Positions 10,690-61,164 of a stretch of DNA of 64,000 nucleotides are shown in pieces. The position numbers and the translations under genes are program-made. The stretch comes from Clostridia bacterium (GTDB lineage: Bacteria; Bacillota; Clostridia; Oscillospirales; CAG-272): the NCBI GenBank assembly GCA_017415325.1, contig JAFQGY010000247.1, positions 2,018 through 66,017 on the forward strand, in the 5' to 3' direction. The first letter of the stretch is position 1. Each line of letters starts with the position of its first letter. The notes under the pieces were generated by a model. The model did not search any database. It saw nothing but the letters and a program-made list of their open reading frames with translations, and had not been told where the DNA came from.

Positions 10690-11075
10690 CTTTCATCCTC
10701 CCGTTTCCAGTAGTAAATTGGAATTTCCTGTCCACTGTCCCATGTATCAAAGTAGTGCCCATCGCATACAGCGACAACATGGCTGGATAACGCAAGTACA
10801 TATATCCCTTTGGGGTTGTCCTCACAGAAGTCCGCCACCGTGTAAACATCCCGCCCATGGTCATCAACCACATACCGGCGGAACCCCTTGGAGCGTAGGA
10901 ATTCACCCCATACACTGTTGGCTGTAGGCATCTCACAGGACATGAACCCAAACAGGCAAAGACTGATATAGGTGCTGTTCCAGTCCATCCCCAGTGCCTT
11001 GGAAATGGCTCTCACGGTGCAGTCACCGGTTCTGTTTTTCGCCGGGTTGGCATTGTAATTCACATATTTGCCCAT
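10686..11075 (-). CDS. putative papain-like cysteine peptidase
   Basis: 129 aa. The N-terminal RTGDCTVRAISKAL gives a candidate nucleophile Cys. The C-terminal SSHVVAV...FDTWDSG gives candidate His/Asp. The pattern is recognised by eye only. Confidence 0.4.
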   Translation of the reverse strand: MGKYVNYNANPAKNRTGDCTVRAISKALGMDWNSTYISLCLFGFMSCEMPTANSVWGEFLRSKGFRRYVVDDHGRDVYTVADFCEDNPKGIYVLALSSHVVAVCDGHYFDTWDSGQEIPIYYWKREDER

Positions 11076-25000: not shown

Positions 25001-28000
25001 GTACCAAACTTCTTTTTAGTCGGTTTCAGATTTGCCATATTGTGTGCTTCGTCAAACACGATTACACCGTCAAATCCTTCTCCGAGCCAGTTTTTTATAG
25101 TATCCAGATGCTTTACGCCCTGTTTTCCGCCTTTGCTCTGTGTACCGCCTTTCAGAGTATCATATGTAACAAATATAATACCATCAGAAATACCGGAAAT
25201 GTTTTTCTTCACAGAATCCTTGGAATAATCAAAAACTTTTGCAGGGTCTCCGCCAAGGTCTGTCCAGTCTCTTACAGCATCTTCAAACAGCGTTTTCTTT
25301 TCAGAAACCCAAACAGCCTTGGTTCTACCCTGGTTGAAGTTGTCCAGAATGATCCCGGCAAGCTGTCTGCCTTTCCCAACCCCGGTACCGTCACCTATGA
25401 AATAACCCTTTCTTGCACCGTTCTTCAACACCTGTTCGTGCGCCTGTCCGGCATAAGAGATATTTTCAAGCTGTGCATCAGAAAGTGCGCCATCATCAAT
25501 AAGTTTCTGATCCAGTTTCGGTACATAATGCAGTTCCGGCGAAGAAACAGCAGACATAGCGGAAGATTCCACAAGCACTGCAGGGTGCTTCTTTGCCCCC
25601 TTCACAGTCAGCGCAGCAGGTCTGTATGTGGCATATACGCCATCATCTTGCTCTGCGGCTTTCTTGGTCTTCGGTTTCTTTACCAGATGGTCTGCATCAC
25701 TTCCCCCAGAGGGCCGTCCGCCAGATTCCATGCGTTCTCGAATTGCAGATTGTCCATTGCTTCCTCGAACTCCTGTTTTGCCGGTGCCGGGAGCGGATTC
25801 TCTTTCAGATACGTTTCCAGTTTCTCCCGAATCTCCCGGAACTGCGGTGTCCAGTATTCCTCGCCCAGATCGTTCTCCTCCTGCATCAGTTCCCGATACT
25901 GTATCGGACTGTTCTCCAGATACAGTGTCACTTCCAGAAGTCCGTCGTCTGCCGGAATCTGACCGCTCCATCCGTTTGTCAGTGCTTCCCTCGCTGTCTC
26001 TTTCAGATACTGCAGGAGCCACACCGACTTCGGGTCCGGTGTCATTCCCAGCAGTTCCATAATCCGCTTCACTTCCTGTCCCAGCGGTGTACTGTTGATC
26101 CGTTCTGTTTCTGTCATTTCTTACTCCTTTCAGAAGTTCCGGAATCTGTTTCAGATCATCGTAATTCCCGGTAATGGTTTCTCCCGTCTGCGCTCCTGTC
26201 TTGTCAATCACAAGCAACTGCACATCAAAGGTAGTTCCGTATTTCCGGTAGTTTTCTCCGTTAATCCCGATATTCGCCCGGATGCTGTAATTTTTCCGAA
26301 GTGTATCATACCAACCTCTAAAGGTAGGTGTATCGTTTGCCATTCCTTTTCCCACAATGGCAACCAGTCTGCCGCCCTCCTGCAGTCTTGCAAGAGCCTG
26401 TTCAATGTGCGGAATGGCGTTCTTTGTGGTGTTTTTGGTTCTCCCGCCAGTAGAGGAAAAGGGCGGATTCATCAGAACCACAGTAGGTGACACAGATTCC
26501 GGCAGAATGTTGTCAATCTGTTCTGCATTTTCCTGATAGAATCCATCAAAAGGCAGCTCTTTCAGCATGGCAAGACGGCTCTCGGAAAGTTCGTTGACAT
26601 ATACTGCTGCCCCATCCGCTTTTGCAAAGGAAGCCAGTCCGCCAATTCCGGCAGAAGGTTCCAGTACCGTGTCTGTACCATCAATATTTGCCACCCACGA
26701 TGCCAGATAAGCAATGTTCGGAGGGGTAGAGAACTGCTGCAGGTTGATCTGTTCCTCTGTCCGCTTTGTCTGTGTGGGAATCTTTGAGAGAATATCTTCA
26801 TCAATTTCCTTGATGGATTCCACAGCATCATTGGGATTGTTTGTGTTAAAATCCCCCTGATTTTTACCCACCAGATCAAGGATATACCGGTTTACACCCA
26901 GTTCCAGCGCATCTGTCATTGCCTTTACATCATATGCCCCCTCTGCCATGGTTCCGCCATACGAATCATTGGCAGCAGCCTGCAATTCCTGTGTGGTGAT
27001 ATTCCTGTGAGCAGTCAGACCATCCAGAACAAAATCAGAAATTTTTCCTGCAGGAGTAGTATTGGCATTCTCACCGCTTTCTTCTATACTGGTATCAGAA
27101 CGAACTGTCTCCGATTCCCGCAGTTCTTCTTTGGCTTCCTCTGTAACGGATTCAGAAGGTGTCCCGGCCGGAGGTTCCTTTGTTTCTGCTGTACTTTCCG
27201 CAACATAATCCGTGTCCGCAAATGCCGCAATATCCCCGATTCTAGATGCATCCGGTACTATGAATCCCTTTGCATACCGGGAATAATACCCGCCGACATC
27301 TTTCATGTAGTCTTTCAGTTTCTGGTATTCCTCACTGGAAAGTCGTCTTGTGGACTGGAACACATTCAGTTTCTTTCCGTCTCTGGTATCCGTGTGCAGG
27401 AAATGATGCAGACTGAATTCCTTTTCCATTGTACCACTTTCCGAAGTATTCTGCAAGGGTTCTGTGGTGTCATTGCCGCTGTTTTCATCCGGAATTGCAG
27501 CAGTTTTCTCAACAGTTTCAGTGGTTTTTGCAACATCTTCAGAAACCGGCGTATTCTGTTCCGTTTTCGGTGCAGTAAATATGGATTCCAGACCACGGCG
27601 AACTGCATTTCCGGATTCTTCAATCCCCTGCCAGTCAATAGAATCATGTTTCCGCCGCAGGAATTCTTCGATGGTTTCCCGGTTTTCCCGCAGTGTTTCA
27701 TCCACTTTTACCATAACTGCCCGTCCGATCTGTGCCTGTCTCTTTTCTTCCGGTGTCTGCGCTTCCCGGATTTCTTCATCCTTGTTCCGGATTTCCTCCA
27801 CCACGTAATCAATGGTGGCATCTACAGCGTTTTCGTCCGGTTCCAGCCCTTCTTCCACTACAGATACCAGTTCCGCCACGTTCTCCACAACATTGTCGGC
27901 AGCACCGTTGACAACACTATCCAGTGCTTCTGCCATGTCCGAGTTGTGGGTGATAATTTCTTCTCTGTGCGCTTCCAGTTCTTCACGAACATCAGAAACT

Positions 28001-40642: not shown

Positions 40643-40716
40643 TGGGACATCAGGGACTCGAACCCCAAACCGTCCGGTTATGAGCCGGATGCTCTCACCA
40701 TTTGCGCTAATGTCCC
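40643..40716 (-). tRNA. tRNA with CAT anticodon (Met, or Ile2 if lysidine-modified)
   Basis: Hand-folded cloverleaf: acceptor GGGACAT/ATGTCCC, anticodon arm TCCGG-CTCATAA-CCGGA, T arm TGGGG-TTCGAGT-CCCTG, discriminator A. 74 nt, no encoded CCA. Confidence 0.8.
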
Positions 40717-40739: not shown

Positions 40740-42131
40740 TCATCTGTATACCTTAATACCACTCTTTCTCCCTAGCCGCCGTGACCTGTAGTCCGCCAAC
40801 CTGTCCGCTTCTGTTTCTTCTTTTGGTTCCACCGCAGGAACTGTATGCTGTACGCAGAAATACCGCAGGGAATCGGGCAAATGTGTCAGCTCGTGCGGCT
40901 CTGTTGCCACATCATTGATGTTTTTCTCATCCGCTTTGATGGTTGACAGCGTCCGAATCAGGTTTTTGCAGCAGGAGAATATATGGATCCTTGCTGTTTT
41001 GGTTATCTCCCCATCCTCCGCCCGTCTTTCCATCACTTTCAGGCGCTCGTGAATTTCCATCCACCCGGCAATTCTGGCATTGCTGGATGATACCAGAGGT
41101 ACTCCGTTTTCGTAAAACAGTTCCGACACCTGTTTACCGGTATCTTTTGTCCTGCTCCACAAATCCGGCGGCGCATATGTTATCATGTCTCTCTCTGGGA
41201 ACGGATTCCCTTCTATGAGAGCTGCACAGGCATCCGATACCACAAGCCCCGGCTGGTATACCTCAGATACCACATATACATCCCCGATGGTATCTATGGC
41301 GTAATACAGCCCCGCCAGAGCATCCAAACCGTAGTCGATGCTTCTGTATTTCCGCCAGTGCGCCGGTATCGGAAATGGCGATACAACATGCACGGACTTG
41401 TCAAATTCTTCATAGTAGACACATCCATCAACACCCCATCCGCCCAGCCCGGCCACTTTGTATCTCTCTGGACGTGTCCGCTTCATTTCCTCAAATTCCT
41501 GCATATCTTCCTCCGACAGCCACTCGTTGCACAGATAATTGGTAGTCATTGCTAGTACATTTGGGTCTTCTCTGTCAAAAAATCGTGCCTTGATCCATGT
41601 TCCCTCGCTCCATGGGTTAAATGTAAGAGTTGTCTGCTTATAATACCCATCGGGAAGGGAACCCATCATGGATTCATTCAGCATATCGAAATCTTTTTCT
41701 TCTTCAATTTCAAACGCTTCTTCAATCCACAGCCAGCACAGAGCGCCGAATTCCACCGTCACAGAGGTTATTTTCAGAGGATCATCCAACCCCCGAAAAT
41801 AGATCTGCTGCCCCGTCTCGTTAAATGTGATTTCAAGCGGACTCTCCTTAAATGTAAACTTATCGTATACTCCAAGGTTTCTTGCCGCCCATTTCAACTC
41901 TTTGAAGCAGGAATCCTTCATGGTGTTATAGTACCGCCTGACCACCAGAGCGTGAGACAACGGGTACTTGATGAGCTGGTATATCAGTTTCATGGCCTGT
42001 GTTTTGGATTTCTTGCTGCGTCGGCTGCCCTTGACAGCCACATACCGGCACTTAGACCGCCACATAGTACCGTACCCCTTACCCACCTTGTCCGGCAGAT
42101 AGATATTGTTCAGCACATCAGCAGCTTTCAT
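40740..42131 (-). CDS. terL: terminase large subunit
   Basis: 463 aa. Walker A-like VAVKGSRRSKKSKT, and the later nuclease-half motifs SIDYGLD...YYAIDTIGDVYVV. Its start overlaps the terS stop. Confidence 0.9.
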   Translation of the reverse strand: MKAADVLNNIYLPDKVGKGYGTMWRSKCRYVAVKGSRRSKKSKTQAMKLIYQLIKYPLSHALVVRRYYNTMKDSCFKELKWAARNLGVYDKFTFKESPLEITFNETGQQIYFRGLDDPLKITSVTVEFGALCWLWIEEAFEIEEEKDFDMLNESMMGSLPDGYYKQTTLTFNPWSEGTWIKARFFDREDPNVLAMTTNYLCNEWLSEEDMQEFEEMKRTRPERYKVAGLGGWGVDGCVYYEEFDKSVHVVSPFPIPAHWRKYRSIDYGLDALAGLYYAIDTIGDVYVVSEVYQPGLVVSDACAALIEGNPFPERDMITYAPPDLWSRTKDTGKQVSELFYENGVPLVSSSNARIAGWMEIHERLKVMERRAEDGEITKTARIHIFSCCKNLIRTLSTIKADEKNINDVATEPHELTHLPDSLRYFCVQHTVPAVEPKEETEADRLADYRSRRLGRKSGIKVYR

Positions 42132-42544
42132 CAGTCCTCCAAATCGTTCTCCCCGCTGATAACAACAGGGACGCCACCTTTAATATCGGTTTCCGTTTTT
42201 GTGGTATACCCATATCTGCCCATCCATAGACCGGAGAGCTGTGTCGGAATCACACCCATTTCAAACTTTCTGCGGGCATCCAGCTCAACTTCTTCCCGGA
42301 TCATATTGACTAACTCAGAAAATTCTTTATCTTCAGCATATGTGGTGTAATAGCTCTGTTCCGTCATCCCCAAATATACTGCAAATCCTTTGACTGTGTA
42401 TGTAATTGGTGCTGGTATTTCACTTGTGTAGTATTCCCCCTGGAAGAATTTTGCCATCTTCCTTGTGTTGTTATCACAAGCATCTTTGTATTCATCCCAT
42501 TTTTCCTTCATTTCTTCCAGTGTGTACATTCTTGGCCTTGCCAC
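42131..42544 (-). CDS. terS: terminase small subunit
   Basis: 137 aa. GTG start follows AAAGGAGAG. N-terminal HTH-like region. Directly upstream of terL. Confidence 0.7.
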   Translation of the reverse strand: MARPRMYTLEEMKEKWDEYKDACDNNTRKMAKFFQGEYYTSEIPAPITYTVKGFAVYLGMTEQSYYTTYAEDKEFSELVNMIREEVELDARRKFEMGVIPTQLSGLWMGRYGYTTKTETDIKGGVPVVISGENDLED

Positions 42545-42545
42545 T

Positions 42546-42743
42546 TCACAACTCTCCTTTCTTTGATAGTGATTGGTTATATTTGCTATATATCAGCCCC
42601 ATGGTGATCCATTGAGCGGACAGGCACACTACTCCCACCACAGAGAGAGCAGCGTACCCATCCACAACCAGCCCCACGGAGCCACCACGTCGCATCAAGG
42701 CAGTCCAATCCATATGCACCATCATGCCATACCGGCCCGGCAT
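42546..42743 (-). CDS. possible 65-aa membrane peptide in the terS leader
   Basis: ATG lies 9 nt after GAGGAG. One hydrophobic stretch. It could be non-coding leader. Confidence 0.3.
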   Translation of the reverse strand: MPGRYGMMVHMDWTALMRRGGSVGLVVDGYAALSVVGVVCLSAQWITMGLIYSKYNQSLSKKGEL

Positions 42744-42953
42744 CGTGCATATCTCCTCATCCGGTACTTCCTACCCGACCTGTATATTTACGTGGTATGA
42801 TGTCGACCACCCACTCTCGTCATCCGGGACCATTGGACAAACCCCGGAACCGTGGCATTTTTGCGTCGGTGCCAACCCCGCCATTGGTACCCCGGATGGC
42901 GCACGCCGGTACTATTGTTTTCTTAAGTTATCAACAGTTTATCACCATACCCC

Positions 42954-42973
42954 CCCCTAAAACTGACATCTTT
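42954..42973 (-). promoter_or_regulatory. conserved late motif, site 3
   Basis: Minus strand reads AAAGATGTCAGTTTTAGGGG, 409 nt upstream of the terS start codon. Confidence 0.5.
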
Positions 42974-43009
42974 ATGAAATAACTGTATTTATATTATGAA
43001 ATAACTGTA
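42973..43009. repeat. 15-bp direct repeat x2 abutting late-motif site 3
   Basis: TATGAAATAACTGTA occurs at 42973-42987 and 42995-43009. Confidence 0.75.
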
Positions 43010-43026
43010 AACGGGTGGTTTTGGGG

Positions 43027-43071
43027 GCAAAATAAAAAGGACATGGATTTTTACTCCACGTCCATGTCCTT
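43027..43071 (-). terminator. intrinsic terminator of the RHH gene
   Basis: An 11-bp perfect stem, AAGGACATGGA (43038-43048) pairing with TCCATGTCCTT (43061-43071), spans the stop codon. T-rich TTTATTTTG follows on the minus strand. Confidence 0.65.
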
Positions 43072-43254
43072 TTCCAGTTTTTCCGCTATCGCCAGATTGA
43101 TATATCCGTTGATGGATAGTCCATATTTTTCCGCCGCCTGCCGCAGGATTTCCTTCCTGCCCTTAGCCATAGTCACGTTGATTCTGTCGTAATTTTCCTT
43201 CACGTACCTATTCACGCAGGCTTGCTGTTTTTTGCTAACCGGCACACCAATCAC
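43051..43254 (-). CDS. ribbon-helix-helix (CopG/Arc-like) repressor
   Basis: 64-67 aa. Pattern ...DRINVTMAKGRKEILRQAAEKYGLSINGYINLAIAEKLEKD (beta strand followed by two helices). The true start is probably the GTG at 43245, 9 nt after AAGGAG. Confidence 0.65.
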   Translation of the reverse strand: MIGVPVSKKQQACVNRYVKENYDRINVTMAKGRKEILRQAAEKYGLSINGYINLAIAEKLEKDMDVE

Positions 43255-43267
43255 CTCCTTTACTTTT

Positions 43268-43296
43268 ATTATATCACACTAATATATTGGTGTAAA
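43268..43296 (-). promoter_or_regulatory. sigma-A promoter of the RHH gene
   Basis: Minus strand reads TTTACA (43296-43291), 17 nt, then TGATATAAT (-10 at 43273-43268). Confidence 0.6.
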
Positions 43297-43368
43297 TAGT
43301 GTTTTTGCACAACTTATTGCAGAAATATTTGTGACTATTGGCACTTGACTATTGGTGTAAATAGTGTT
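43285..43368. promoter_or_regulatory. two identical 19-bp operator-like repeats, one in each divergent promoter
   Basis: TATTGGTGTAAATAGTGTT occurs at 43285-43303 (covering the -35 of the minus promoter) and at 43350-43368 (the spacer of the plus promoter). Confidence 0.65.
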
Positions 43369-43373
43369 ATAAT
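43345..43373 (+). promoter_or_regulatory. near-consensus sigma-A promoter of the plus-strand island
   Basis: TTGACT (43345-43350), 17 nt, then TGTTATAAT (-10 at 43368-43373). Confidence 0.7.
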
Positions 43374-43421
43374 GGGTACAACGAAAGGGAAACACCCAAA
43401 CAACGAACGGAGAAAGAAAAA

Positions 43422-43676
43422 ATGAAACACTCTATCATGACCGCAAAAGCAATGGAAGAACTTTATATCAGATATGACCTTGATGAAAAAACGTGGAAAA
43501 TGCTGTATGAAATGGCGTGTCACAATCTGATTGACTATGAAACATGGGCGAAATTCTTTAACAAGTGCAAGGGATACACTTTCAAGGATGATGAACAGAC
43601 CGCAGTAATTGATGATTATGAAAATCAGAACGTAATCTATATCCGCAACAAAGACGGCGTTCTGGTTCGTGCATAA
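43422..43676 (+). CDS. hypothetical protein (island gene 1)
   Basis: 84 aa. AGAAAGAAAAAATG start context. Globular-looking. Confidence 0.5.
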   Translation: MKHSIMTAKAMEELYIRYDLDEKTWKMLYEMACHNLIDYETWAKFFNKCKGYTFKDDEQTAVIDDYENQNVIYIRNKDGVLVRA

Positions 43677-43751
43677 AGCGTCTGACGAGTCGTTGAGAAT
43701 TACGACGAAACCGCCCCGGCGGTCACGCTGAAACGAAAAGGAGAACAAAAA

Positions 43752-44033
43752 ATGAAATATGTAAGCATTATCCGCAGGATTTTGAGCATCGACAATGCGC
43801 TTAGCCGCATCCCGCTCCACGACAGCTATTATGAAACGGAACGCTACGATGACATAGAAGACCGCCTCTGGAACAAGCGCAAAGAGCTTGCTCAACTCAT
43901 CAGTGAGTACACCAGTTGCCCCGACAGAACAAACAAGGAGCTTCGCCGACACTACTACGGGCATAAGAAGCAAGTGAAGCTCGCTTGTAGGCTCCTCGGT
44001 GCTGACTACTACAAGGTGTTAAGAGGATTTTAA
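43752..44033 (+). CDS. hypothetical basic protein (island gene 2)
   Basis: 93 aa, with AAAGGAGAAC upstream of the ATG. Confidence 0.5.
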   Translation: MKYVSIIRRILSIDNALSRIPLHDSYYETERYDDIEDRLWNKRKELAQLISEYTSCPDRTNKELRRHYYGHKKQVKLACRLLGADYYKVLRGF

Positions 44034-44047
44034 GCCGAAATGGGCAA

Positions 44048-44341
44048 ATGCCCATCACCGTGAACCGCCCCACACGGTCTGATGATGGCAGGGCAGAAAG
44101 GATAAGAAACATGGGAGAAATCATGGGCGCAATCAGAAACGCAATGATTGAAACCGGCCGGATGGATGCAAAATGCAAACTGGAATGCACCAACGTAGTA
44201 ACAGACGGCGATTGGGCACGAGTCGAATGCTATCTGTATAAAGGGCAGAGAGCAAAGAAACCATGTATGTACTGGAATGTCTGTGTGTATGTACCGGAAA
44301 GAAAAGTCCATTGGGACACAACAACATTCTACCATCTATAA
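44048..44341 (+). CDS. hypothetical Cys-containing protein (island gene 3)
   Basis: 97 aa. Start uncertain, because internal Met codons are present. Confidence 0.45.
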   Translation: MPITVNRPTRSDDGRAERIRNMGEIMGAIRNAMIETGRMDAKCKLECTNVVTDGDWARVECYLYKGQRAKKPCMYWNVCVYVPERKVHWDTTTFYHL

Positions 44342-44393
44342 ACCACCCCACCAAGCCGAGCCGGGCGTCAAATCCCGGCAGAAAGTGACTACA

Positions 44394-44552
44394 ATGACAA
44401 ATCAAGAAATCTTTGAAATGCTTGCAGATTTGGAAGAAAGGCTGTTTTACGCCTACTGTGCAGATCGTGAAAACGATGCTCTGAAATCTGCCCACGAATC
44501 TGCAAGAAAAGCACTGGAAGAATTCGCCAGAAAAACCGGAACACATAATTAA
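44394..44552 (+). CDS. 52-aa helical protein (island gene 4)
   Basis: MTNQEIFEMLADLEERLFYAY... Weak SD. Confidence 0.4.
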   Translation: MTNQEIFEMLADLEERLFYAYCADRENDALKSAHESARKALEEFARKTGTHN

Positions 44553-44597
44553 CTCCCGATTCCTGCTTGATTTTACCGAAAAACTTTTGCCAAACCC

Positions 44598-44626
44598 CTC
44601 GACTTGTCACCAGATTGTTGATATAA
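44598..44626 (+). promoter_or_regulatory. sigma-A promoter of island gene 5
   Basis: TCGACT (44598-44603), 17 nt, then TGATATAAT (-10 at 44621-44626). Confidence 0.55.
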
Positions 44627-44761
44627 TATAGACACAGCATACGTCGAAAACTGGGAGTGCGGCAAAAGCATATGCCCACCGTATCTGTTTGATTTGATGC
44701 GGTATAAGATGGAGCATGAAAATAAAATTGATCCCCAATATGCAAATAAGGAGATTGCAAA

Positions 44762-45274
44762 ATGAAACTCAAGGTAAAGACTTCTGTCAACGAATATCAC
44801 AACATTCACTACTACACTACGTTCGATGTAGAATATGATAAGCCGGAAATCGAAGACAGTTTCGGCACGATGACCGGAACCAGAATCTCCGATGTATTCC
44901 CGGTGTATCCCGATCTCAGCACAACCAACATCTACACACCGGACTTTGAGCACTTCTTCGAGCTCTGGGGCGCAAAGGTTTTGACTGATGAAGAGGACGA
45001 AAGCCAGTTTGAATACCGCTACATTGCTGTTCCTGTAGACCCAATAGAATCAGAGGAATCCCTTCAGAAAGATGCCAACGGCCTCGATAAGGACACATTT
45101 GAAAGTATGGTGCAGGATTATTTGTCTGACCGTGGAGAAGATGATCTGCTCCTTTGCGGCGAACCAGAACTGGATGAAGACGGGTGCTGGATGCAATGCG
45201 TGAAAGGCGTAGACGACAACCGGATTTATACATTGCATTACACCAGCGACATGGACATTTATTTGGCTTACTAA
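44762..45274 (+). CDS. very acidic 170-aa protein (island gene 5)
   Basis: AAGGAGATTGCAAAATG start context. By hand count 40 D+E vs 12 K+R (net about -28). No family recognised. Confidence 0.55.
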   Translation: MKLKVKTSVNEYHNIHYYTTFDVEYDKPEIEDSFGTMTGTRISDVFPVYPDLSTTNIYTPDFEHFFELWGAKVLTDEEDESQFEYRYIAVPVDPIESEESLQKDANGLDKDTFESMVQDYLSDRGEDDLLLCGEPELDEDGCWMQCVKGVDDNRIYTLHYTSDMDIYLAY

Positions 45275-45365
45275 ACGGATATATCATTGACTGGGGTATT
45301 GTAACCCACAACGGCAAAACATACTACATCATGTATGTACTCTGATATATTTCAAAAATCACATC

Positions 45366-45397
45366 AAAAAAGACCAGCCACTCCCGACTGGTCTTTT
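45366..45397. terminator. bidirectional terminator (32-nt core identical to 19004-19035)
   Basis: The same AAAAAAGACCAGCCACTCCCGACTGGTCTTTT sequence sits between convergent stops at 45274 and 45404. Confidence 0.7.
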
Positions 45398-45403
45398 TAC
45401 TTA

Positions 45404-45673
45404 TTACACCGCAGCCAATCCCACAGCAGAGCTTTTAATCCGCAGAACCGTTCGCTCACTGTAGTTGAGCTGCATCGCTATGTATACTATACTTCTCGCA
45501 TTGTGGTAGTATTCCACAAAAATCACACGCTGTACACCATCCAACTTCTCAGCATCAATCCAGAAATCCAAATACAAATCCCTGTAACGTCTGCTTCTCA
45601 TGATCCATCCGCTTCCGGTTTTGATGTATTTCCACCTCAGCCGACGGAATTCTTTCAGCTCATTGCGTGTCAT
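45404..45673 (-). CDS. late-gene activator candidate (RinA/ArpU/sigma-70 region-4-like)
   Basis: 89 aa with C-terminal HTH ...QLNYSERTVLRIKSSAV... It is the last early-side gene before the packaging module. Confidence 0.5.
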   Translation of the reverse strand: MTRNELKEFRRLRWKYIKTGSGWIMRSRRYRDLYLDFWIDAEKLDGVQRVIFVEYYHNARSIVYIAMQLNYSERTVLRIKSSAVGLAAV

Positions 45674-45688
45674 AGTCCTCCTATAGGA

Positions 45689-46105
45689 TTATTTGTCAAT
45701 CCTCCTTGCATATACGACTTCCATGTGCTGTGTCAGATTTGGAGGATACCTTTTATCTTTTACCCCAAATAATGCTCTTGCTTTGGCATCCTCAATTCCA
45801 TCTGCGTCCACAGCAATGTTAATTGTGCCGCTTGTCCTGATACATACATCGTATCTTGCCGATGCATATAAAGCCCGCTCAATGTATCCTATGACCACAG
45901 GATTTGTCTGTTCCTGCAACACGGTAAGTATCCTGTCGAGTATCTCGTCCTGTGTTTGGGTTGATACATATAACGCTTTTTCTCCCTCCGCAATCGGTAT
46001 GGATGCCCAGTCATGACCAACGCACACGCATACCTTATCACCTTCTTGTTTCAGCCACAAGCGATCATTGGCATATCCAAAAGCTATAATCTCTTCGGTT
46101 ATCAT
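45689..46105 (-). CDS. hypothetical protein
   Basis: ATG at 46105 follows GGGGGA, right after the ssb stop. Confidence 0.5.
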   Translation of the reverse strand: MITEEIIAFGYANDRLWLKQEGDKVCVCVGHDWASIPIAEGEKALYVSTQTQDEILDRILTVLQEQTNPVVIGYIERALYASARYDVCIRTSGTINIAVDADGIEDAKARALFGVKDKRYPPNLTQHMEVVYARRIDK

Positions 46106-49130: not shown

Positions 49131-49354
49131 CCAGCAGATACGCCATAGTATTCCGCAAGGAGTATCAGATGTCCCAGCGTCGGTACCCGCATCCCTGTCT
49201 CGTATTTGGATATGCTCACCATGCAGATACCAGTGTCCAGTGCAACTTTCATCTGCGTCAGGTGCTTCTCCCGTCTGGCTTTATACAACCGATCCCCAAT
49301 AGCCCTGCGCATATCCGGTGAGATGTTTTCATTGTGCTTCATCCATTTCACCAA
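49106..49354 (-). CDS. XRE-family HTH protein (paralogue 1)
   Basis: LTQMKVALDTGICMVSISKYETG...YYGVSAGWLIG. Confidence 0.7.
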   Translation of the reverse strand: MVKWMKHNENISPDMRRAIGDRLYKARREKHLTQMKVALDTGICMVSISKYETGMRVPTLGHLILLAEYYGVSAGWLIGEVG

Positions 49355-50348
49355 CTTTCATTTGGTTCTCATCAGGTGCGATCTTCTTATAGTCCTCAAA
49401 TTTCGGGCACTTCTTCCGGATCGCCGGCAGATTGCACCATCTCTGCAGATCCAGATACAACGGATCGCACGACGGCTTATTAAAAATCATCACATACGGA
49501 TTATACCCCAGTTTATCCAGTGTATATATCCGCCGCAGATCATCTTCAAACGCCGACCAGTAATTCACCAGCACATACACTGTAGCATAATTCCCGTGCG
49601 GTTTTCTGACGGCATGTTCCGCATACCACTGAAAAACCGGCTCCATATATTCTTGCGGATCGTCCCACGCAAAATGGATCTCCTTCACCTTGATTTTGTT
49701 CAGCAAATCCACATTTTTCTTGTTCAGCAATCTTGCATCAAGCCCCTGTGTAAAATCCACGTAAGCGCCGCTGTCCGCAAGCTGCCCCAGCAGTTCCAGA
49801 TGCTCCCGGCAGGCTAAAATATTGGGATCCATCAGCTTAATATATTTCTGCCCCCTCCAGAACTCGGACAAATCCGCCACTTTCCGGCTTACACGTCCTT
49901 CTTTCTGCGATACAAGGCAAAATGCACAGTTTCTCGGGCACCCCCGTGTCAGGTATCCATATGCAGTATCCTTCGTCAGTTCCGGATACATGGAATAGTC
50001 AGGATATGTATGTTCTTCTTGCCATGGGAGTTCTTCCCTATACACCTCATTTCCATATACATGATTTCCAAATCTCCATTTTCCGGCATTGTATGTTTCA
50101 ATCATCCCGTCTTCCTGCCTGCGTATATACCCTGTTCCACCTTTAATAATGTGTTTGGCCATCGGAACCCAGTCAATATCAGGACTATACGTTTCGTCGA
50201 ACACCTTCGACATATACACCAGATCATACTGCTCCATCCGGTTGCACCATTCCACGGTATCACCGCACTGCTTGTGCCATGCGGACAGTTTCATCAATGC
50301 AAGGTTTGGGAAATTGTGACCATCAACATCAATCAGTCCTATTTTCAT
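49329..50348 (-). CDS. radical SAM domain protein
   Basis: Starts MKIGLIDVDGHNFPNLALMKL (Rossmann/B12-like N-terminus). CPRNCAFC is a CxxxCxxC cluster. Confidence 0.7.
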   Translation of the reverse strand: MKIGLIDVDGHNFPNLALMKLSAWHKQCGDTVEWCNRMEQYDLVYMSKVFDETYSPDIDWVPMAKHIIKGGTGYIRRQEDGMIETYNAGKWRFGNHVYGNEVYREELPWQEEHTYPDYSMYPELTKDTAYGYLTRGCPRNCAFCLVSQKEGRVSRKVADLSEFWRGQKYIKLMDPNILACREHLELLGQLADSGAYVDFTQGLDARLLNKKNVDLLNKIKVKEIHFAWDDPQEYMEPVFQWYAEHAVRKPHGNYATVYVLVNYWSAFEDDLRRIYTLDKLGYNPYVMIFNKPSCDPLYLDLQRWCNLPAIRKKCPKFEDYKKIAPDENQMKVGEMDEAQ

Positions 50349-50559
50349 CAAGCAACCTCCGATATACTTCCCGCCACATATACACCCCGGCAGTATTCCC
50401 GCCGTCCAGCACACATGCGTGATACATATTGTCGTATTTCCGGTATTCCGCGTCCAGCTTCTCCGGCGGCAGCTTCTTTCTCCTGATAGATGCCATGTCC
50501 CGCCTGATCTGCGCTTCCATTTCCGATTCCGTCATCACATGCGGCTTATCTTTTTCCAC
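50329..50559 (-). CDS. hypothetical protein
   Basis: 76 aa. Overlapping starts and stops with its neighbours. Confidence 0.4.
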   Translation of the reverse strand: MEKDKPHVMTESEMEAQIRRDMASIRRKKLPPEKLDAEYRKYDNMYHACVLDGGNTAGVYMWREVYRRLLDENRTD

Positions 50560-50764
50560 GCTTTCTCACCACCTTAAACATTTCGTCAACTTCCACAAAT
50601 CTGTTGTGATACCATTTCCGCCACCCCACGCAGTCCCGGCATATCGTGCAGTTCCCCTTACCTCTGGGGCATTTGTCACACGGATACTCAGGAAACCTGT
50701 CGGACAGTTTCTGCGGCGGAGGTTTTACGGTTTTTATTTCTGCAAGAATGTCATTTGCTTCCAT
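50546..50764 (-). CDS. small Cys-rich (zinc-ribbon-like) protein
   Basis: 72 aa with CDKCPRGKGNCTICRDC. Confidence 0.4.
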   Translation of the reverse strand: MEANDILAEIKTVKPPPQKLSDRFPEYPCDKCPRGKGNCTICRDCVGWRKWYHNRFVEVDEMFKVVRKRGKR

Positions 50765-50767
50765 GGG

Positions 50768-51556
50768 CTATACCTCCATCTGCATCTGTTGCGGGATGTT
50801 CTGTAAATTCAGCATCTTTTCCGTGGACATGTCGTAGAATTTTTTACTTACTTCAAATCCATAACTGTTCCTGCCCATTTCCCATGCTGCCCGCAGAGTA
50901 GAGCCGCTTCCTGCACATGGATCAATCACAACATCCCCCGGGTCTGTGAATATCTCAATCAGCCGTTTCAGTACCGCTATCGGTTTCTGTGTCGGATGGA
51001 TTTTCGGATATTCCTTCCCGTCTCGCTTCCACTCGAACCAGTTGAAAACCATGTGGCCTTTCCCGTCAGCACCGATATTGTTGAATTTCGGAAGCTTGTC
51101 CCGATACATCACAATACCGTATTCTGTGGCACCAACAATTTTCATGTTTGCTTTCAGTACCTGTGCGGAATAATTCTTACAAAACACAAGCGGTATGTAG
51201 TGCTGATACCCGTGCTTCTTTCCGATTTCCACAAGATCCATAGCCTGTTCAAAGGAGCAGAACACAATCATACAGGGAGCCTTTCCACGTTCCTTCGGTT
51301 CCTTTTTCAAAAGTTTCCCGCAGAAATGAAAGTATTCGTTCAAGTTGAAATCCCCATCCCCATTGAAGAAAGCAGATGCGGCCAGTTTGCTTTCCCCGTT
51401 GTGGTTGTCCCCGCCGTTGTACCACATGGGATTGCTTGCGTAAGCCTTGACGCCCAGATTATACGGTATATCCGCAATCACAAGCTGTGCCTTTGGAATT
51501 CCATACCGCTTGTAATTCTGGAAGTTGTCATGGTACAGTTTGCATTTCACATCCAT
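50768..51556 (-). CDS. DNA N4/N6 methyltransferase (beta class)
   Basis: ATG at 51556 follows GGGAGG. Motif IV variant ADIPYNLG comes first. The AdoMet motif VIDPCAGSGSTLRAA is near the C-terminus. Confidence 0.8.
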   Translation of the reverse strand: MDVKCKLYHDNFQNYKRYGIPKAQLVIADIPYNLGVKAYASNPMWYNGGDNHNGESKLAASAFFNGDGDFNLNEYFHFCGKLLKKEPKERGKAPCMIVFCSFEQAMDLVEIGKKHGYQHYIPLVFCKNYSAQVLKANMKIVGATEYGIVMYRDKLPKFNNIGADGKGHMVFNWFEWKRDGKEYPKIHPTQKPIAVLKRLIEIFTDPGDVVIDPCAGSGSTLRAAWEMGRNSYGFEVSKKFYDMSTEKMLNLQNIPQQMQMEV

Positions 51557-51557
51557 C

Positions 51558-51941
51558 TCATACCTCCCTGACAACCACCCGGATGCAGTCTTCGTCATGG
51601 AAATACATCTCCACCCCATGCACCCATGTCCGGTTGTCGTCCCTGATTACCCTGCCTTTCAGCGAGTCAATGACATATTTTAGAACAATACTATGATTGT
51701 CGACATCAAGCCGGTCGTTCACAAACAGCGTGATTATCACAGGGTTTTCATACGGAAATTTCCGTACTTTCTGCCGTTCCATCTCTCCCCACACAAGAGC
51801 ATGGAAATAATCTTTGTCCTTATTCCTCTGCTGCCATACCTTACCGGAATAGTAAGCATTTGTCCCGAACCGTGCAGTCCATTTGGATTTTGCTTTTTTG
51901 TCGGCAGGGTAGGGTATATCAAATACTGTTTTCTTCGGCAT
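51558..51941 (-). CDS. RusA-family Holliday junction resolvase
   Basis: 127 aa. DRLDVDNHSIVLKYVIDSLKGRVIRDDN fits the RusA acidic motif. Confidence 0.65.
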   Translation of the reverse strand: MPKKTVFDIPYPADKKAKSKWTARFGTNAYYSGKVWQQRNKDKDYFHALVWGEMERQKVRKFPYENPVIITLFVNDRLDVDNHSIVLKYVIDSLKGRVIRDDNRTWVHGVEMYFHDEDCIRVVVREV

Positions 51942-56895: not shown

Positions 56896-57165
56896 TTAGG
56901 ACACCACTTCCACCGTGTGCCCGTTTTTATGCACAATCCTATAAAGTCCAAGCCGCTCCACAGCCCGTCTCATCAACCGGTATTTCGATTGGGTTTCACG
57001 CTCCGTTGCATATCGGAACCGAATCATCCTGTCCGGCTCCATTTTCACCACTGCCATCACATCGGGACCATATAACCCCTGCGGTCTGCCCGGCGGATTT
57101 CCCGTTTTCGGTCTGCCCATATTACTCCTTCCCATAGGGGATAAATCCATCCCCATACAGCCCAT
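56896..57165 (-). CDS. hypothetical protein
   Basis: 89 aa. It overlaps the upstream gene end by 44 nt. Confidence 0.35.
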   Translation of the reverse strand: MGCMGMDLSPMGRSNMGRPKTGNPPGRPQGLYGPDVMAVVKMEPDRMIRFRYATERETQSKYRLMRRAVERLGLYRIVHKNGHTVEVVS

Positions 57166-58273
57166 TCAGCACATCAAATACATGCCCCATACCAAGCCCT
57201 TCTTTCGTAGGCTTCCACAGTCCGTCTTCCGGATCATACCCGCCGCCGTAGATGCAGTACAGCCACAGTTTCGGGTGCGTCCGTTTCAGCCGCTCGAACC
57301 GGCCTTCGCCTTTCTCTAAATGTGCGCCGAATCCGCAGAATATACAGCCAGTGCGATCACATCCCGTGGTACACAGCCGCTCTCCACAGAAACTTTCGTC
57401 CATGCGAATTTGCTCCGGATCATCCGCAAACACGACATCCCCATACACGGATGCTATCGGTATATCGCATTTTTTGATGTAGGCCAGCACATCTTGACCC
57501 AGCCAGAAGGACATTGGATTACTTTTTGGCTCTTTAGCTTCAAATGCATTACATCCACTTTTTAACCATGTGTTTTCTCGAAGTGTGCTTTCCTCAGCCA
57601 TCTGACCGGTAATAGGATGCTTTCCGCTCTGCCGCACAAATTCGTGCATTGGGTGCTTTTTCATCACATCGCAACACATATCTGAGACAAGAAAGTCAAC
57701 CGAAAGTAAGGATCTATATTTTTCGATAGTATATTTCGATCCATCAGCAGTCCTGTGATATTTTGCAATCATGTCCGAATCCGGCATTTCCAGACCCATA
57801 TCAACCGCTTAGGTTTCAGAAATCCCCAAATTCATGAGTCTGAGACTATATTTTTTATTTTCCAGATTTTTTCTTCCTAACCCGATGTATCCCGCCTGCC
57901 GCTTCCCAATCATCGGATACCCATATTTGGCTATCACCTCCGCAAACGTCATCTTCGGCCGCAGCACCGTGATCTGTACGTCAATATCGTATTTCGCCCT
58001 CAGATACTGCGCAAACGTCCGCACATGCTCCTTGATCTCCGGGTATTCCAGTCCCGTATCCACAAACACAAGATACAGCGGTATCCCTGCAATGGCACAC
58101 CATTTTGCCGCAATGTCCGCCAGCACCGTGGAATCTTTGCCGCCGGAAAATGATACATAGCATTGATTGTCCCAGTATGCGTACCACTCCGAAATCAGCC
58201 CCAGTGTGCGCTGGACTTTGTCATCCAGTGACTGTGCCTGCAGCTTACGCAGATCTTCACGTGTTGCCATCAC
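57122..58273 (-). pseudogene. PAPS-reductase/DndC-like PP-loop protein interrupted by one in-frame TAA
   Basis: ORF 57809-58273 carries the PP-loop SFSGGKDST. ORF 57122-57799 carries ITGQMAEESTLR and the Cys cluster CTTGCDRTGCIFCGFG. The TAA at 57811-57809 is in the same frame as the ATG at 57799, with 3 codons between them. Confidence 0.6.
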
Positions 58274-60389: not shown

Positions 60390-61115
60390 TCACATTCCTT
60401 CCTTTGCCATCATTGCATGGATTTTCTGCCGTCCCGTCGGCGTGATTTTCGTCTGTACGCTTGTAGTGATTTCCGTTCCCTTTGTATAAGTAAACTCAGA
60501 AACTTCAAACCACTTGTTTTTCCGCCCTTCTGCGTAAGGCACCAGCCGTCTGTGGGAATTCCGGTACACAAGTTTGTGGTCAAGCAGGAACTGAATGAAT
60601 TCCTTCTCCTTCACACCGAATGCCTTTGCCGTGTCCCGGAAACAGAGGGAACCTTTGGATTCAGCAACTCGATCGAAGTACGACGCTTTCGGTTCCATAA
60701 GGGCAATCTGTTCCGCCTGTTCCTTGATCTTCCGTTCCGCAAACAGAATCGCTCTCGCCATCAGTTCTTCCCCGGACATTTCTTCCTGTCCGGCAATGTA
60801 CCCGCCGTGTTTCCGCACAGAGGGAAGAACTTCATCGAATACCCACGATTCAAACTTCTGTGCTTCCGGCAGCTTGCTGTGGGTGATAAGCCGGTATACG
60901 TCACCTTCGGGGATGAATAACATTGTTTGAACTCCGCTTGTGGTGGGGGCTTCCATTTTGGAAACCCCCTTGCAGTGTGTGTTTACCGCTTTTGTAGGGA
61001 TTGCATACCCAAGTGCCTTTGCCACATCGCTGCCGCAGAACAGCACTTTCCCGTTTTCTTCCATCGTCCGGATTTCCCCGAACTGTTCGTTTTTGAAAAT
61101 GATGATGTCGTTCAT
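60390..61115 (-). CDS. antirepressor (BRO-N domain plus KilAC/ORF6C-type C-terminus)
   Basis: MNDIIIFKNEQFGEIRTMEENGKVLFCGSDVAKALGY...DVYRLITHSKLPEAQKFESWVFDEVLPSVRKHG is a BRO-N domain. Confidence 0.85.
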   Translation of the reverse strand: MNDIIIFKNEQFGEIRTMEENGKVLFCGSDVAKALGYAIPTKAVNTHCKGVSKMEAPTTSGVQTMLFIPEGDVYRLITHSKLPEAQKFESWVFDEVLPSVRKHGGYIAGQEEMSGEELMARAILFAERKIKEQAEQIALMEPKASYFDRVAESKGSLCFRDTAKAFGVKEKEFIQFLLDHKLVYRNSHRRLVPYAEGRKNKWFEVSEFTYTKGTEITTSVQTKITPTGRQKIHAMMAKEGM

Positions 61116-61164
61116 TTTATACTCCTGTATATACATTTATGTGGTTTATGCAACAGTGTCACTA

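Follow-up and report, generated by a model that had tools for sequence, protein, structure and literature searches.

The region from 43039 to 45398 of the analysed DNA, a 64-kb stretch that we call the window, is probably a hypervariable accessory-gene slot in a Clostridia siphophage, filled here by an operon that a repressor would damp and whose message would be processed by ribozymes. The slot belongs to a phage of gut Clostridia, lies at the boundary of the early and late regions, and holds swappable cargo genes under a small ribbon-helix-helix (RHH) repressor. Judged from their sequence, two of the intergenic spacers are hammerhead self-cleaving ribozymes, one of type I (HH-A) and one of type II (HH-B), both of which the earlier note on this DNA had overlooked. 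These two elements are the most informative part of the locus, and they alter how the operon must be read. Systems of this kind are already known, and the present locus is a good yet not unprecedented instance of them. The features of the island are listed in Table 1.

Table 1. Features of the island, in window coordinates.
Feature	Position	Strand	Basis or remark
Intrinsic terminator of RHH gene, left edge	43039-43063	-	Terminator scan: 9-bp stem, 5 G-C pairs, T-run
RHH (Arc-like) repressor gene	43051-43254	-	64-67 aa by choice of GTG start; family matches
RHH promoter, TTTACA-17-TATAAT, TG-extended	43268-43296 (reads 43296-43268)	-	Consensus scan, 11/12
Operator O1 (19-mer)	43285-43303		Overlaps -35 of RHH promoter
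Island promoter, TTGACT-17-TATAAT, TG-extended	43345-43373	+	Consensus scan, 11/12
Operator O2 (identical 19-mer)	43350-43368		Fills island-promoter spacer
g1	43422-43676	+	84 aa; ORF with ribosome-binding site; hypothetical protein MBQ3178210
HH-A, predicted type I hammerhead, stem I open	43677-43729	+	Core, stems and fold
g2	43752-44033	+	93 aa, basic; predicted three-helix bundle, pLDDT 88.8; family of 9 clusters
HH-B, predicted type II hammerhead with pseudoknot	44033-44102	+	Descriptor scan and subfamily
g3	44111-44341	+	76 aa (72 aa from ATG 44123), Cys-rich; start 8 nt past conserved Shine-Dalgarno
G+C-rich hairpin in g3-g4 spacer (44342-44393), then AGAAAGUGA	44360-44379	+	Fold z = -1.5
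g4	44394-44552	+	52 aa, helical, acidic; recurrent small family, from homologues
P3 promoter, TCGACT-17-TATAAT, TG-extended, without 19-mer	44599-44627	+	Consensus scan, 10/12
HTH regulator remnant	44628-44765	+	C-terminal 45 codons, no usable start; alignment to L192 protein
g5	44762-45274	+	170 aa; 40 D+E vs 12 K+R, net -28, pI 4.05
Bidirectional intrinsic terminator, right edge	45367-45398	both	Folding

On the left the slot adjoins the terminator of the late-activator gene, which encodes a small sigma-70-region-4/RinA/ArpU-like protein, and on the right a conserved late leader of 480 nt that precedes terS (PF16677, 2e-11). The island had been described as interrupting the adjacency of these two genes; it lies between the activator's terminator and the late leader, and no operon is broken. 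Its transcription, from sigma-70-type promoters, opposes that of the rest of the phage. Terminators insulate both of its ends, as had been proposed, and the right-hand one folds well in both directions (z = -6.8 and -5.0). Homology to related phages stops at about 43012-43038 on the left and picks up again at 45366-45368 on the right. In four near-identical phages (L192/L194, L193 and L195), with terL 98-99% and act89 97.8% identical, the flanks share 95-97% DNA identity and different opposite-strand islands occupy the same slot, which supports the earlier view of a terminator-bounded cargo island with host-type promoters. Breakpoints among these islands fall at 43761, 44033 and 44038, one of them at the 5' edge of HH-B, and g2 moves as a single cassette, L193 having only window positions 43761-44033 in common. 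Two more distant phages, L022 and L005, carry an island in the same place beside an activator homologue; that of L022 includes a g4-like gene of 71 aa and has its RHH gene last on the island strand, and that of L005 contains a pistol ribozyme (66 bits) and an AcrVA2-like gene.

None of the five cargo proteins had been recognisable to the earlier reader, and g1-g5 likewise gave no match in Pfam, PHROGs, NCBIfam or PADLOC, nor any known anti-defence domain in these collections, the PADLOC models being of defence and not of anti-defence. The g1 product is 98.8% identical in L195. The predicted bundle of g2 had no match in the PDB; one g2 homologue belongs to a run of small genes, among them a weak match to Lar (restriction alleviation), and another lies beside PcfJ/PcfK. 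Database matches to g3 were confined to itself, on 4 contigs. A g3 start at 44048 was rejected, being inside the ribozyme, in favour of ATG 44111, or 44123 according to public gene calls. The hairpin between g3 and g4 was considered as a recognised ribozyme and rejected, with no Rfam match at E<=10 and none with our two hammerhead subfamily models (R1 and R2). Homologues of g4 that are 56-62% identical occur in L003, L079 and L093, and in L046 a g4 homologue stands directly 3' of a type II hammerhead. We tentatively suggest that the cargo may function in counter-defence or in competition among mobile elements. The hints of counter-defence come from the neighbours of distant homologues, among which Lar is weak, and Aca14 offers a precedent for an RHH regulator of anti-defence operons (PMC13551039).

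It is unlikely that the cargo consists instead of genes for lysogenic conversion or superinfection exclusion, which the prophage would express weakly and steadily to the benefit of the host, with the ribozymes as mere passengers of the cassettes. Host-type promoters and terminator insulation would suit such genes, as would negative autoregulation, which yields low steady expression. The window also contains Rha and Ant genes, which point to a temperate lifestyle, and in an Oscillospiraceae genome (L191) a related RHH module borders on genes of the host (rmlA-like and secG-like ORFs), a position typical of such cargo. However, g1-g5 include no signal peptides, membrane proteins or known exclusion families, and no integrase was seen in the 64-kb window. 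The tight packing of stop codon, ribozyme and Shine-Dalgarno sequence described below argues that the ribozymes are selected parts and not passengers.

The third strong promoter reported earlier, P3, is present, although the coordinates had been given one base off (44598-44626). The earlier note had placed all five genes under the RHH protein; the last of them has P3 as its own promoter. In related phages the homologue of P3 is the main promoter of the island: window positions 44575-44639 match the region around that promoter in L192/L194 at 83% identity, and the block upstream of P3, gaaaaacttttgcYaaacccc, is common to L192 and L193. The reading of the next 134 nt as a leader of the last gene was rejected, as they are the tail of a truncated HTH gene. 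The translation of this remnant, IDTAYVENWECGKSICPPYLFDLMRYKMEHENKIDPQYANKEIAK followed by the stop, aligns with a 66-aa HTH_3 protein of L192, and positions 44644-44741 share 86% DNA identity with the gene for that protein. The stop codon of the remnant and the start codon of g5 share the sequence ATGA, and in L002-L004 the HTH gene is intact and has a 4-bp overlap with the g5 homologue. On these alignments the gene for P3's cognate HTH regulator is truncated here, and P3 probably escapes RHH control because it belongs to this second cassette.

The acidic composition that had been reported for the g5 protein is as stated, and the structure prediction proposed as a check did yield a model (pLDDT 82), beta-rich and of two domains, although it found no counterpart in the PDB by Foldseek at E<0.1. 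The N-terminal beta domain (residues 1-95) is rare, conserved and a separate rare family, and the C-terminal alpha/beta domain (about 110-170) is lineage-specific; relatives amounted to 11 matches among 1.84 billion representatives, and matches in BFVD were to uncharacterised phage proteins only. That g5 is an ArdA/Ocr-type DNA mimic blocking restriction enzymes, as the earlier note suggested, seems decidedly unlikely. The net charge of a protein of this size, to which both domains contribute, points that way, as do the AcrVA2-like gene that adjoins the g5 homologue in L005 and the hammerheads that flank ardA in Agrobacterium and Legionella (PMC3088659). The likeness is nevertheless one of charge only: there was no ArdA/Ocr Pfam match at E<=1, no profile match to any PDB sequence and no PDB structural match better than E=0.4, the model shows globular domains and not an elongated helical mimic, acidic small phage proteins are common, and g5 itself has no flanking ribozyme.

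Control of the remaining cargo genes would centre on the minus-strand gene, whose identification as ribbon-helix-helix stands: its product matches phrog_13890 (2e-16) and phrog_582, an Arc-like family (3.5e-5), and matches weakly the RHH families DUF6290, RepB-RCR_reg, RelB and BrnA, with P22 Arc as its top, though weak, PDB sequence match (E=0.13). The back-to-back consensus promoters of the RHH gene and the island are likewise present as described; a promoter scan gave 13 matches, with these two and P3 as the top three, compared with 7.0 +/- 2.7 in shuffles. Each of the two contains one copy of the identical 19-mer TATTGGTGTAAATAGTGTT, in agreement with the earlier note; the 64 kb contain exactly two copies, and none of 100 shuffles yielded two matches. 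Within O1 are two TRGTGT half-sites, 9 bp apart, with extra inverted half-sites nearby (ACACTA at 43276 and ACACCA at 43244), and the six half-sites within 125 nt form the densest cluster of the window.

RHH homologues adjoin the same or analogous operators in L195 (17/19 identity at O2), L191 and L057. In L191 the RHH protein is 52% identical, and both operator copies are kept ahead of an unrelated single gene, one copy identical at 17 of 19 positions and the other at all 19; the latter copy and the -10 fall in a stretch of 28 nt that shows no difference from the island-promoter region of the window, and the RHH promoter is arranged alike, its -35 TTTACA again falling inside the operator. L057 combines a 42%-identical RHH protein with the same layout and a different palindromic repeat. 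This comparison of L191 and L057 supports the prediction that the RHH protein acts on the 19-mers, and the layout predicts negative feedback, for which "autoregulated switch", the wording used before, is an overstatement. Very improbably, the island could be an immunity module like immI of phage P22, in which the RHH protein, as Mnt or Arc, would restrain a small antirepressor among g1-g4 and the island would govern prophage induction instead of carrying accessory cargo. An operator in the spacer of the cargo promoter, together with divergent promoters, is the classical Arc/Pant geometry of P22, and it recurs here with an Arc-like RHH protein in an island internal to the phage, not at an end. 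Against such a module, g1-g5 gave no Ant, KilAC or Bro match, and a separate Bro-N/KilAC antirepressor, apart from the island, is encoded at 60390-61136. The cargo is also swapped wholesale between backbones that are 95-99% identical, and a repressor-matched antirepressor should not be so replaceable; in L191 an unrelated single gene has the same RHH and operators.

Both predicted ribozymes lie in spacers on the coding strand. HH-A begins with the base directly after the g1 stop codon, and its predicted cleavage site, after C43724, is 27 nt ahead of the g2 start. Its core is complete (CUGAcGA / GAAA / A15.1-U16.1 / C17), with three 5-bp stems and no mispair beside the core, and its minimum-energy fold is exactly the expected three-way junction. 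The Rfam hammerhead model matches it in part, at 19.8 bits, below the gathering threshold of 48.5. Its subfamily is found in 29 viral contigs, in which 5 of 5 stem I pairs covary. Our model R2, whose training set included HH-A, gives it 73.4 bits; two independent copies, in L197 and L057, reach 61.3 and 38.9 bits.

The stop codon of g2 supplies, with its final base, the first A of HH-B, which is predicted to cleave after C44056 and ends in a 3' tail, AAAGGA (44097-44102), that is the Shine-Dalgarno sequence of g3. In the descriptor scan its stems III and I are of 6 bp each. Its score against Rfam is 14.1 bits, below the gathering threshold of 37; an intergenic element of phage Mushu, 82% identical to it with compensatory changes, scores 34.5 bits (E=3e-4) against Hammerhead_II, nearly at threshold. 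The pair at 15.2-16.2 is A-U, a rarer type, and the cleavage triplet is therefore AUC; a C.A mismatch lies at the edge of the pseudoknot. At least 120 viral contigs contain members of the HH-B subfamily; pairing holds in 94.9% of the cells of its alignment, and compensatory changes are seen at 10 pairs, with stem II and the pseudoknot invariant and yielding no covariation evidence because the search pattern fixed their 3' strands. Model R1 gives HH-B 93.1 bits, but HH-B was a training sequence. In 54 of 67 distinct type II contexts the hammerhead starts -1 to +2 nt from the end of the upstream stop codon, and AAAGGA follows it directly in 50. That the two elements are inactive relics or chance matches, leaving an ordinary polycistronic operon, is highly improbable: sub-threshold Rfam scores, individual folding energies no better than shuffles (z = -0.7 to -0.8) and documented inactive hammerhead-like RNAs (PMC3088659) would fit, but every core nucleotide is present, the stems covary over dozens of viral copies, HH-A is 97% conserved in L195 and has an independent counterpart in L197 directly after a 53%-identical g2 homologue, and the descriptor, which picked out both elements on the strand of the island, gave just one further candidate in the 64 kb, a weak one on the opposite strand, with about 0.3 matches in shuffles.

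We propose that the damped, ribozyme-processed operon works as follows. The RHH protein would bind the TRGTGT half-sites of the two operators and repress both promoters, because these sites lie over its own -35 and in the island-promoter spacer. On entry of the DNA into a cell without the RHH protein, a burst of g1-g4 expression would be followed by damping to a low level. The polycistronic RNA would cut itself at the two predicted sites, freeing g1, g2 and g3-g4 as independent messages with defined ends, and each downstream piece would start with a 5'-OH and carry its own Shine-Dalgarno sequence. Cleavage may thereby affect stability or translation, and g5 would also be driven by P3, the island promoter of the second cassette.

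The closest known systems are the clustered hammerheads of prophages, which flank single genes such as ardA or short gene blocks and cleave both in vitro and in vivo (Perreault et al. 2011; PMC3088659). As in those clusters, types I and II occupy spacers between the genes of a phage operon, loop I of the type II copy pairs with the 3' tail in a pseudoknot, and the flanked genes are small, unknown and inconstant between phages. Unlike them, the present locus has a regulatory context of an RHH gene and two operators, occupies a set genomic slot between late activator and terS, shows a cassette breakpoint at a ribozyme 5' edge among near-isogenic phages, and carries elements that fall under the Rfam gathering thresholds and are unannotated in the public record. 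Ribozyme-associated phage gene neighbourhoods led to the pistol, hatchet and twister-sister ribozymes, according to work cited in PMC4604425, and the pistol ribozyme of the L005 island is in keeping with such neighbourhoods.

In layout, the locus resembles Aca14 operons (PMC13551039) in its small RHH repressor, binding repeats within strong promoters, predicted repression of its own gene and of small unknown phage genes, and a regulator that stays while the cargo varies. It differs in that the RHH gene is divergent and not the last of the operon (as it is in L022), the half-sites are in tandem over the -35 and spacer and not inverted over the -10, and the window contains no known acr gene. With P22 immI (Arc, Mnt, Ant) it shares an Arc-like RHH protein, promoters that diverge and overlap, a cargo promoter with an operator between its -35 and -10, and an internal position in the phage at a distance from the main immunity region; it departs from immI in having no Ant-like cargo, genes interchangeable among isogenic phages, and ribozymes. 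The g5 protein is like ArdA and Ocr in size and strong negative charge, and ardA is hammerhead-flanked in some bacteria, whereas its sequence and predicted two-domain, beta-rich fold show no similarity to theirs. Finally, in synthetic insulators of the RiboJ type, a self-cleaving ribozyme just upstream of the ribosome-binding site sheds the upstream RNA context and gives the downstream gene a fixed 5' end. The present copies are of a self-cleaving type and occupy the same position relative to the ribosome-binding site, and may insulate in a similar way; unlike RiboJ, they are natural and lie between cistrons instead of after a promoter.

The island between terS and act89, the gene for an 89-aa late-activator protein, consists of one minus-strand gene, encoding a ribbon-helix-helix (RHH) protein, and five plus-strand cargo genes, g1 to g5. 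The phage genes of the window are oriented on the minus strand, with early genes, including SSB and dUTPase, lying above 46 kb. The sequence derives from a Clostridia bacterium MAG, and its island genes are entered in the public record as hypothetical proteins MBQ3178208-14. The five-gene reading of the earlier note overlooked the spacers between g1 and g2 and between g2 and g3, in which we identified two hammerhead ribozymes, designated HH-A and HH-B. All three promoters claimed in that note were the top-ranked candidates in our promoter scan (RHH promoter, 43296-43268; island promoter, 43345-43373; third promoter, P3, upstream of g5, 44599-44627), and the terminators that it placed at both ends of the island were recovered by terminator scanning and folding (43039-43063 and 45367-45398). 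A search of the window for an integrase or other lysogeny genes returned nothing decisive.

Positions of the two ribozymes and the neighboring phage genes in the window
Feature	Position	Strand	Description
HH-A	43677-43729	plus	Complete type I hammerhead, g1-g2 spacer
HH-B	44033-44102	plus	Type II hammerhead, g2-g3 spacer
terL	40740-42131	minus	
terS	42131-42544	minus	PF16677, 2e-11
act89	45404-45673		89 aa, sigma-70-region-4/RinA/ArpU-like (profile searches)

The hammerhead core (C3-U4-G5-A6-N7-G8-A9, G12-A13-A14, A15.1-U16.1 and H17) was complete in both ribozymes. In HH-A it is made up of CUGACGA, GAAA and ACCGC...GCGGU-C; stems I (AGCGU/ACGCU), II (GUCGU...ACGAC) and III (ACCGC...GCGGU) are ordered such that the core CUGACGA lies between stems I and II, GAAA follows stem II and C17 follows stem III, with predicted cleavage after C43724, and the minimum-energy fold was exactly the predicted three-way junction. 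The corresponding pieces of HH-B are GAAA, AUGGGC...GCCCAU-C and CUGAUGA, arranged as AGCC-GAAA, a 6-bp stem III, UC with predicted cleavage after C44056, and a 6-bp stem I with a 10-nt loop, followed by CUGAUGA-UGGC-AGGGCAG-AAAGGA. The tail interaction that would form the HH-B pseudoknot, GCCC/GGGC, can reach four pairs, the fifth position being a C.A, and shows no covariation because these columns are nearly invariant in the family. In the HH-A family we observed only a conserved loop II, UGARAAUU. A descriptor scan of the 64 kb found HH-A and HH-B on the plus strand, against an average of about 0.3 matches in shuffled sequences. The sole other match was a weak type II-like element with 4-bp stems on the minus strand (18281-18319), which is probably due to chance, since the shuffles gave similar weak matches.

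Both ribozymes fell below the Rfam gathering thresholds, HH-A scoring 19.8 against 48.5 bits (Hammerhead_3, partial) and HH-B 14.1 against 37 bits (Hammerhead_II). At the gathering threshold a whole-window Rfam search returned only one tRNA, and permissive scans detected HH-B solely in a very short slice. Because these scores were sub-threshold, family membership was tested by comparison. A 72-nt stretch covering HH-B (44031-44102), the only part of the island DNA with similarity to deposited phages, aligned at 82% identity with a spacer between genes of Faecalibacterium phage Mushu, with compensatory changes in stems III and I; the Mushu spacer scored 34.5 bits (E=3e-4) against Hammerhead_II, for which the gathering score is 37. 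The 3' motif of HH-B was present in at least 120 viral contigs. When 39 distinct copies were aligned, 94.9% of cells were paired and 10 pairs were compensatory, compared with at most 45% paired in slid controls. A motif comprising the core and stem II of HH-A was found in 29 viral contigs, and all 24 distinct copies had the type I layout, with 94.7% pairing and compensatory changes at all five pairs of stem I, a stem that lay outside the search pattern. The HH-A covariance model scored 61.3 bits in one contig (L197), directly after a 53%-identical g2 homolog, and 38.9 bits at the second ribozyme of another island (L057). The g3-g4 spacer (44342-44393) was considered as a third ribozyme of the twister or pistol kind and rejected: a 105-nt slice gave no Rfam match at E<=10, neither subfamily covariance model matched, and the spacer folds as an ordinary hairpin (z = -1.5).

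The packing of the type II ribozymes between genes was regular. Among 67 distinct contexts, the upstream stop codon ended within -1 to +2 nt of the first A of the ribozyme in 54, AAAGGA lay directly 3' of it in 50, and the start codon mostly followed 12-17 nt past its 3' end, indicating a unit of stop codon, ribozyme, Shine-Dalgarno sequence and start codon. This unit places the start of g3 at 44111. Public gene calls place it at 44123, and an ATG at 44048 falls within HH-B, such that ORF callers can set a gene start inside a ribozyme; equally, biologically relevant ribozyme copies can score below Rfam thresholds and be absent from public annotation. The genes flanking about 130 hammerheads formed clusters mostly from Mushu-like phages; Pfam searches with ten representatives yielded one DnaJ domain, one weak DUF4411 match and nothing else, and gene neighborhood was thus an uninformative guide to function. 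One contig (L120, minus strand, ~10230-10850) has three hammerheads from the same type II subfamily inside about 550 nt, which leaves very short cassettes between the ribozymes.

Comparison with related phages revealed that the island occupies a hypervariable slot. The 90%-identity cluster of act89 is found on many contigs, and four near-isogenic relatives (L192-L195) share 97.8% identity in act89, 96-98% in terS and 98-99% in terL. DNA identity in the right flank (45367-45700) is 95-97% for all four. In the left flank (42101 to about 43038) it is about 95% for L192, L193 and L194, and 97% from 42587 onward, the only part present in the short L195 contig. In L195, similarity to the window takes in the RHH gene, the two promoters, g1 and HH-A and continues through g2 as far as 44038, with other genes thereafter, and this breakpoint is the 5' edge of HH-B. 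L193 shares g2 alone (43761-44033), set amid other genes, one of them for a different RHH-like regulator, and we found no ribozymes in its island. The islands of L192 and L194 consist of three genes, encoding a 189-aa protein, a 66-aa HTH protein and a 107-aa protein. More distant phages likewise carry an opposite-strand island adjoining an activator homolog: that of L022 holds a type II hammerhead, a g4-like gene and, last on the island's strand, an RHH gene, and that of L005 holds a pistol ribozyme, a g5 homolog and an AcrVA2-like gene. The pistol ribozyme lies in the first spacer of the L005 island (L005:356-423) and scored 66 bits against a gathering score of 34.5. At the activator-proximal end of the L192 and L195 islands (L192:5271-5452; L195:1768-1920) is a hairpin-rich element of about 95 nt, GCCGTTGCAGC...GCTGCAACGGC, followed by a T-run and accompanied by a promoter-like site, clearest in L192; this element, which is absent from the window, may be a small RNA gene. 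The position of the slot between a terminator and the late leader, at the boundary of early and late genes, suggests that cargo can be swapped without disturbing the phage.

P3 and the block upstream of it have homologs in the island promoters of L192 and L193. The only differences are in the spacers, which in those relatives hold palindromes suited to their own regulators. Downstream, 44628-44765 encodes the C-terminal 45 residues of an L192-type HTH protein, without a usable start; the stop codon of this remnant overlaps the g5 start as ATGA, an overlap also seen between intact HTH genes and g5 homologs in L002-L004. The remnant and the promoter homology together indicate that a deletion joined P3 to the middle of an HTH gene. 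A structured RNA or riboswitch in the g5 leader was rejected, as its folding was unremarkable (z = -0.36) and the region is the truncated HTH gene. Because P3 lacks the 19-mer found in the other two promoters, g5 probably has expression that is independent of the RHH protein, on top of any read-through from the island promoter.

The RHH protein belongs to phrog_13890 (2e-16) and matched the Arc-like phrog_582 (3.5e-5); its Pfam and NCBIfam matches were all to RHH families and all below cut-offs, and its best PDB match was P22 Arc, which was weak (E=0.13). [quoted passage not shown] The 19-mer occurs exactly twice in the window, a frequency that shuffles never reproduced. As the earlier note had claimed, one copy is over the -35 of the RHH promoter and the other fills the spacer of the island promoter. 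Each copy contains two TRGTGT half-sites 9 bp apart, and with inverted half-sites at 43244 and 43276 there are six in 125 nt, the densest cluster in the window. In an Oscillospiraceae MAG (L191), the RHH protein is 52% identical and both operators are placed alike relative to both promoters, one being identical at 17/19 positions and the other across 28 nt including the -10; the cargo there is a single unrelated 95-aa gene. In L057, where the RHH protein is 42% identical, a different palindromic repeat occupies the same two positions, and the RHH gene is followed by a small gene and two hammerheads, first a type II and then a type I. An 18-mer operator search of 596 Gb of genomes gave 33 single matches, compared with about 17 expected by chance (an arithmetic estimate), and among these an RHH homolog was present at L191 only. 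Conservation of the regulator together with its site, and the modularity of the arrangement, suggest that the RHH protein represses both promoters; to this extent the autoregulation proposed in the earlier note is supported, and we infer that the protein binds the 19-mer.

As claimed earlier, the cargo is unlike known families, g1-g5 having matched none of Pfam, PHROGs, NCBIfam and PADLOC. The acidic composition of g5 was also confirmed (40 D+E against 12 K+R, net -28). Beyond size and charge, to which the earlier note had limited its comparison, g5 showed no similarity to the ArdA/Ocr DNA mimics in sequence or fold: Pfam gave no ArdA or Ocr match at E<=1, a family profile gave no PDB sequence match, and Foldseek gave no PDB match better than E=0.4 for a confident structure model (pLDDT 82), and membership was rejected on these grounds. 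Matches of g5 in BFVD were small uncharacterized phage proteins only. Its N-terminal beta domain is rare, with 11 matches among 1.84 billion representatives, and its C-terminal domain is lineage-specific. Structure prediction, which the earlier note had proposed for all five proteins, was carried out for g5 and g2; the latter is predicted to fold as a three-helix bundle and its family comprises nine clusters; the fold search for it returned only generic helical bundles. One g2 homolog belongs to a small-gene array located between a lysin and a recombinase, with a weak Lar match (L196), a second is beside PcfJ/PcfK, and a third is in an opposite-strand islet adjoining a terS. The g4 gene recurs in several islands, and a database search found no relatives of g3. 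Anti-defense matches occurred solely near distant homologs, namely the AcrVA2-like gene in L005 and the weak Lar match in L196. Such gene neighborhoods would fit arrays of accessory or counter-defense genes, and prove nothing. A cargo role in counter-defense or in competition between elements is a tentative suggestion, to which we give slightly less than even weight.

Immediately upstream of terS is a G-rich minus-strand stretch of about 430 nt that has no ORF (42545-42975) and is about 95% conserved among related phages. On the minus strand it folded far more stably than shuffled sequences (z = -3.95), which was not so on the plus strand (z = -1.19). It contains a hairpin with compensatory changes (42823-42848) and a long G.U-rich hairpin (42595-42683); searches of Rfam and of the phage collection returned no family and no similar DNA, respectively. 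The stretch could be a structured late leader, or else an RNA related to packaging. At its upstream edge a 16-mer, TTATGAAATAACTGTA, occurs twice, 22 bp apart (42972-42987 and 42994-43009), and both copies are retained in relatives, making the repeats a candidate late promoter or binding site of the small activator. Elsewhere in the phage, the minus strand encodes a tRNA-Met with a CAT anticodon just downstream of terL (40643-40716), and the structural region contains a single ORF of 3495 aa (19042-29529, minus strand). Minus-strand genes of the early region (49329-51619 and 57122-57799) include a weak radical-SAM match, an N6/N4 DNA methylase and a PAPS-reductase-like protein, and may form a DNA-modification module.

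The most likely mechanism is that the RHH protein damps a strong island promoter and that the primary transcript cleaves itself after g1 and again after g2, leaving every cassette on a separate message that has a ribosome-binding site and a fixed 5' end. An additional, probably unregulated, promoter would serve g5. It is conceivable, but in our judgment improbable, that the hammerhead and Shine-Dalgarno units serve as functional joints of cassette exchange for phage counter-defense genes. If so, each mobile unit would comprise a ribozyme, a ribosome-binding site and a gene, self-cleavage would release the new gene from upstream RNA and allow correct expression wherever the cassette lands, and the conserved ribozyme sequences would double as short homology patches for recombination; g1-g5 would then be new anti-defense proteins, and g5 a new kind of acidic inhibitor. 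Reasonable candidates for anti-defense screening in phages of gut Clostridia are the recurrent small families of g2 and g4, the N-terminal beta domain of g5, and g3, which has no relatives.

The RHH-operator layout has two closest analogs, one of which is the Arc/Mnt-Pant arrangement of P22. The island differs from P22 immI in that Pfam found no ANT, KilAC or Bro domain in g1-g5, and the Bro-N/KilAC gene of the window is located away from the island, at 60390-61136. Aca14, an RHH regulator of anti-defense genes, is likewise among the closest described analogs (PMC13551039). With Aca-type operons the island shares a small repressor with putative sites in the operon promoter, but it differs in that no known anti-defense family (Acr, ArdA, Ocr or Lar) is present in g1-g5. 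For the ribozymes, the precedent is in prophages, where multiple hammerheads flank single genes or short blocks and the flanked genes vary, ardA among them; cleavage was demonstrated in vitro and in vivo, and the function was left unexplained (PMC3088659). The role of self-cleaving ribozymes in phage operons has been a standing question since their discovery in 2011. The present locus provides a compact natural test bed, in which a single repressor and a single promoter are combined with two ribozymes that differ in topology, and for which there are four or more near-isogenic phages whose sole differences are in the cassettes, one breakpoint falling exactly at a ribozyme edge, and the question thereby becomes directly testable. 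The locus is a further case of a known arrangement, notable mainly as a clean natural system in which to address the role of phage ribozymes.
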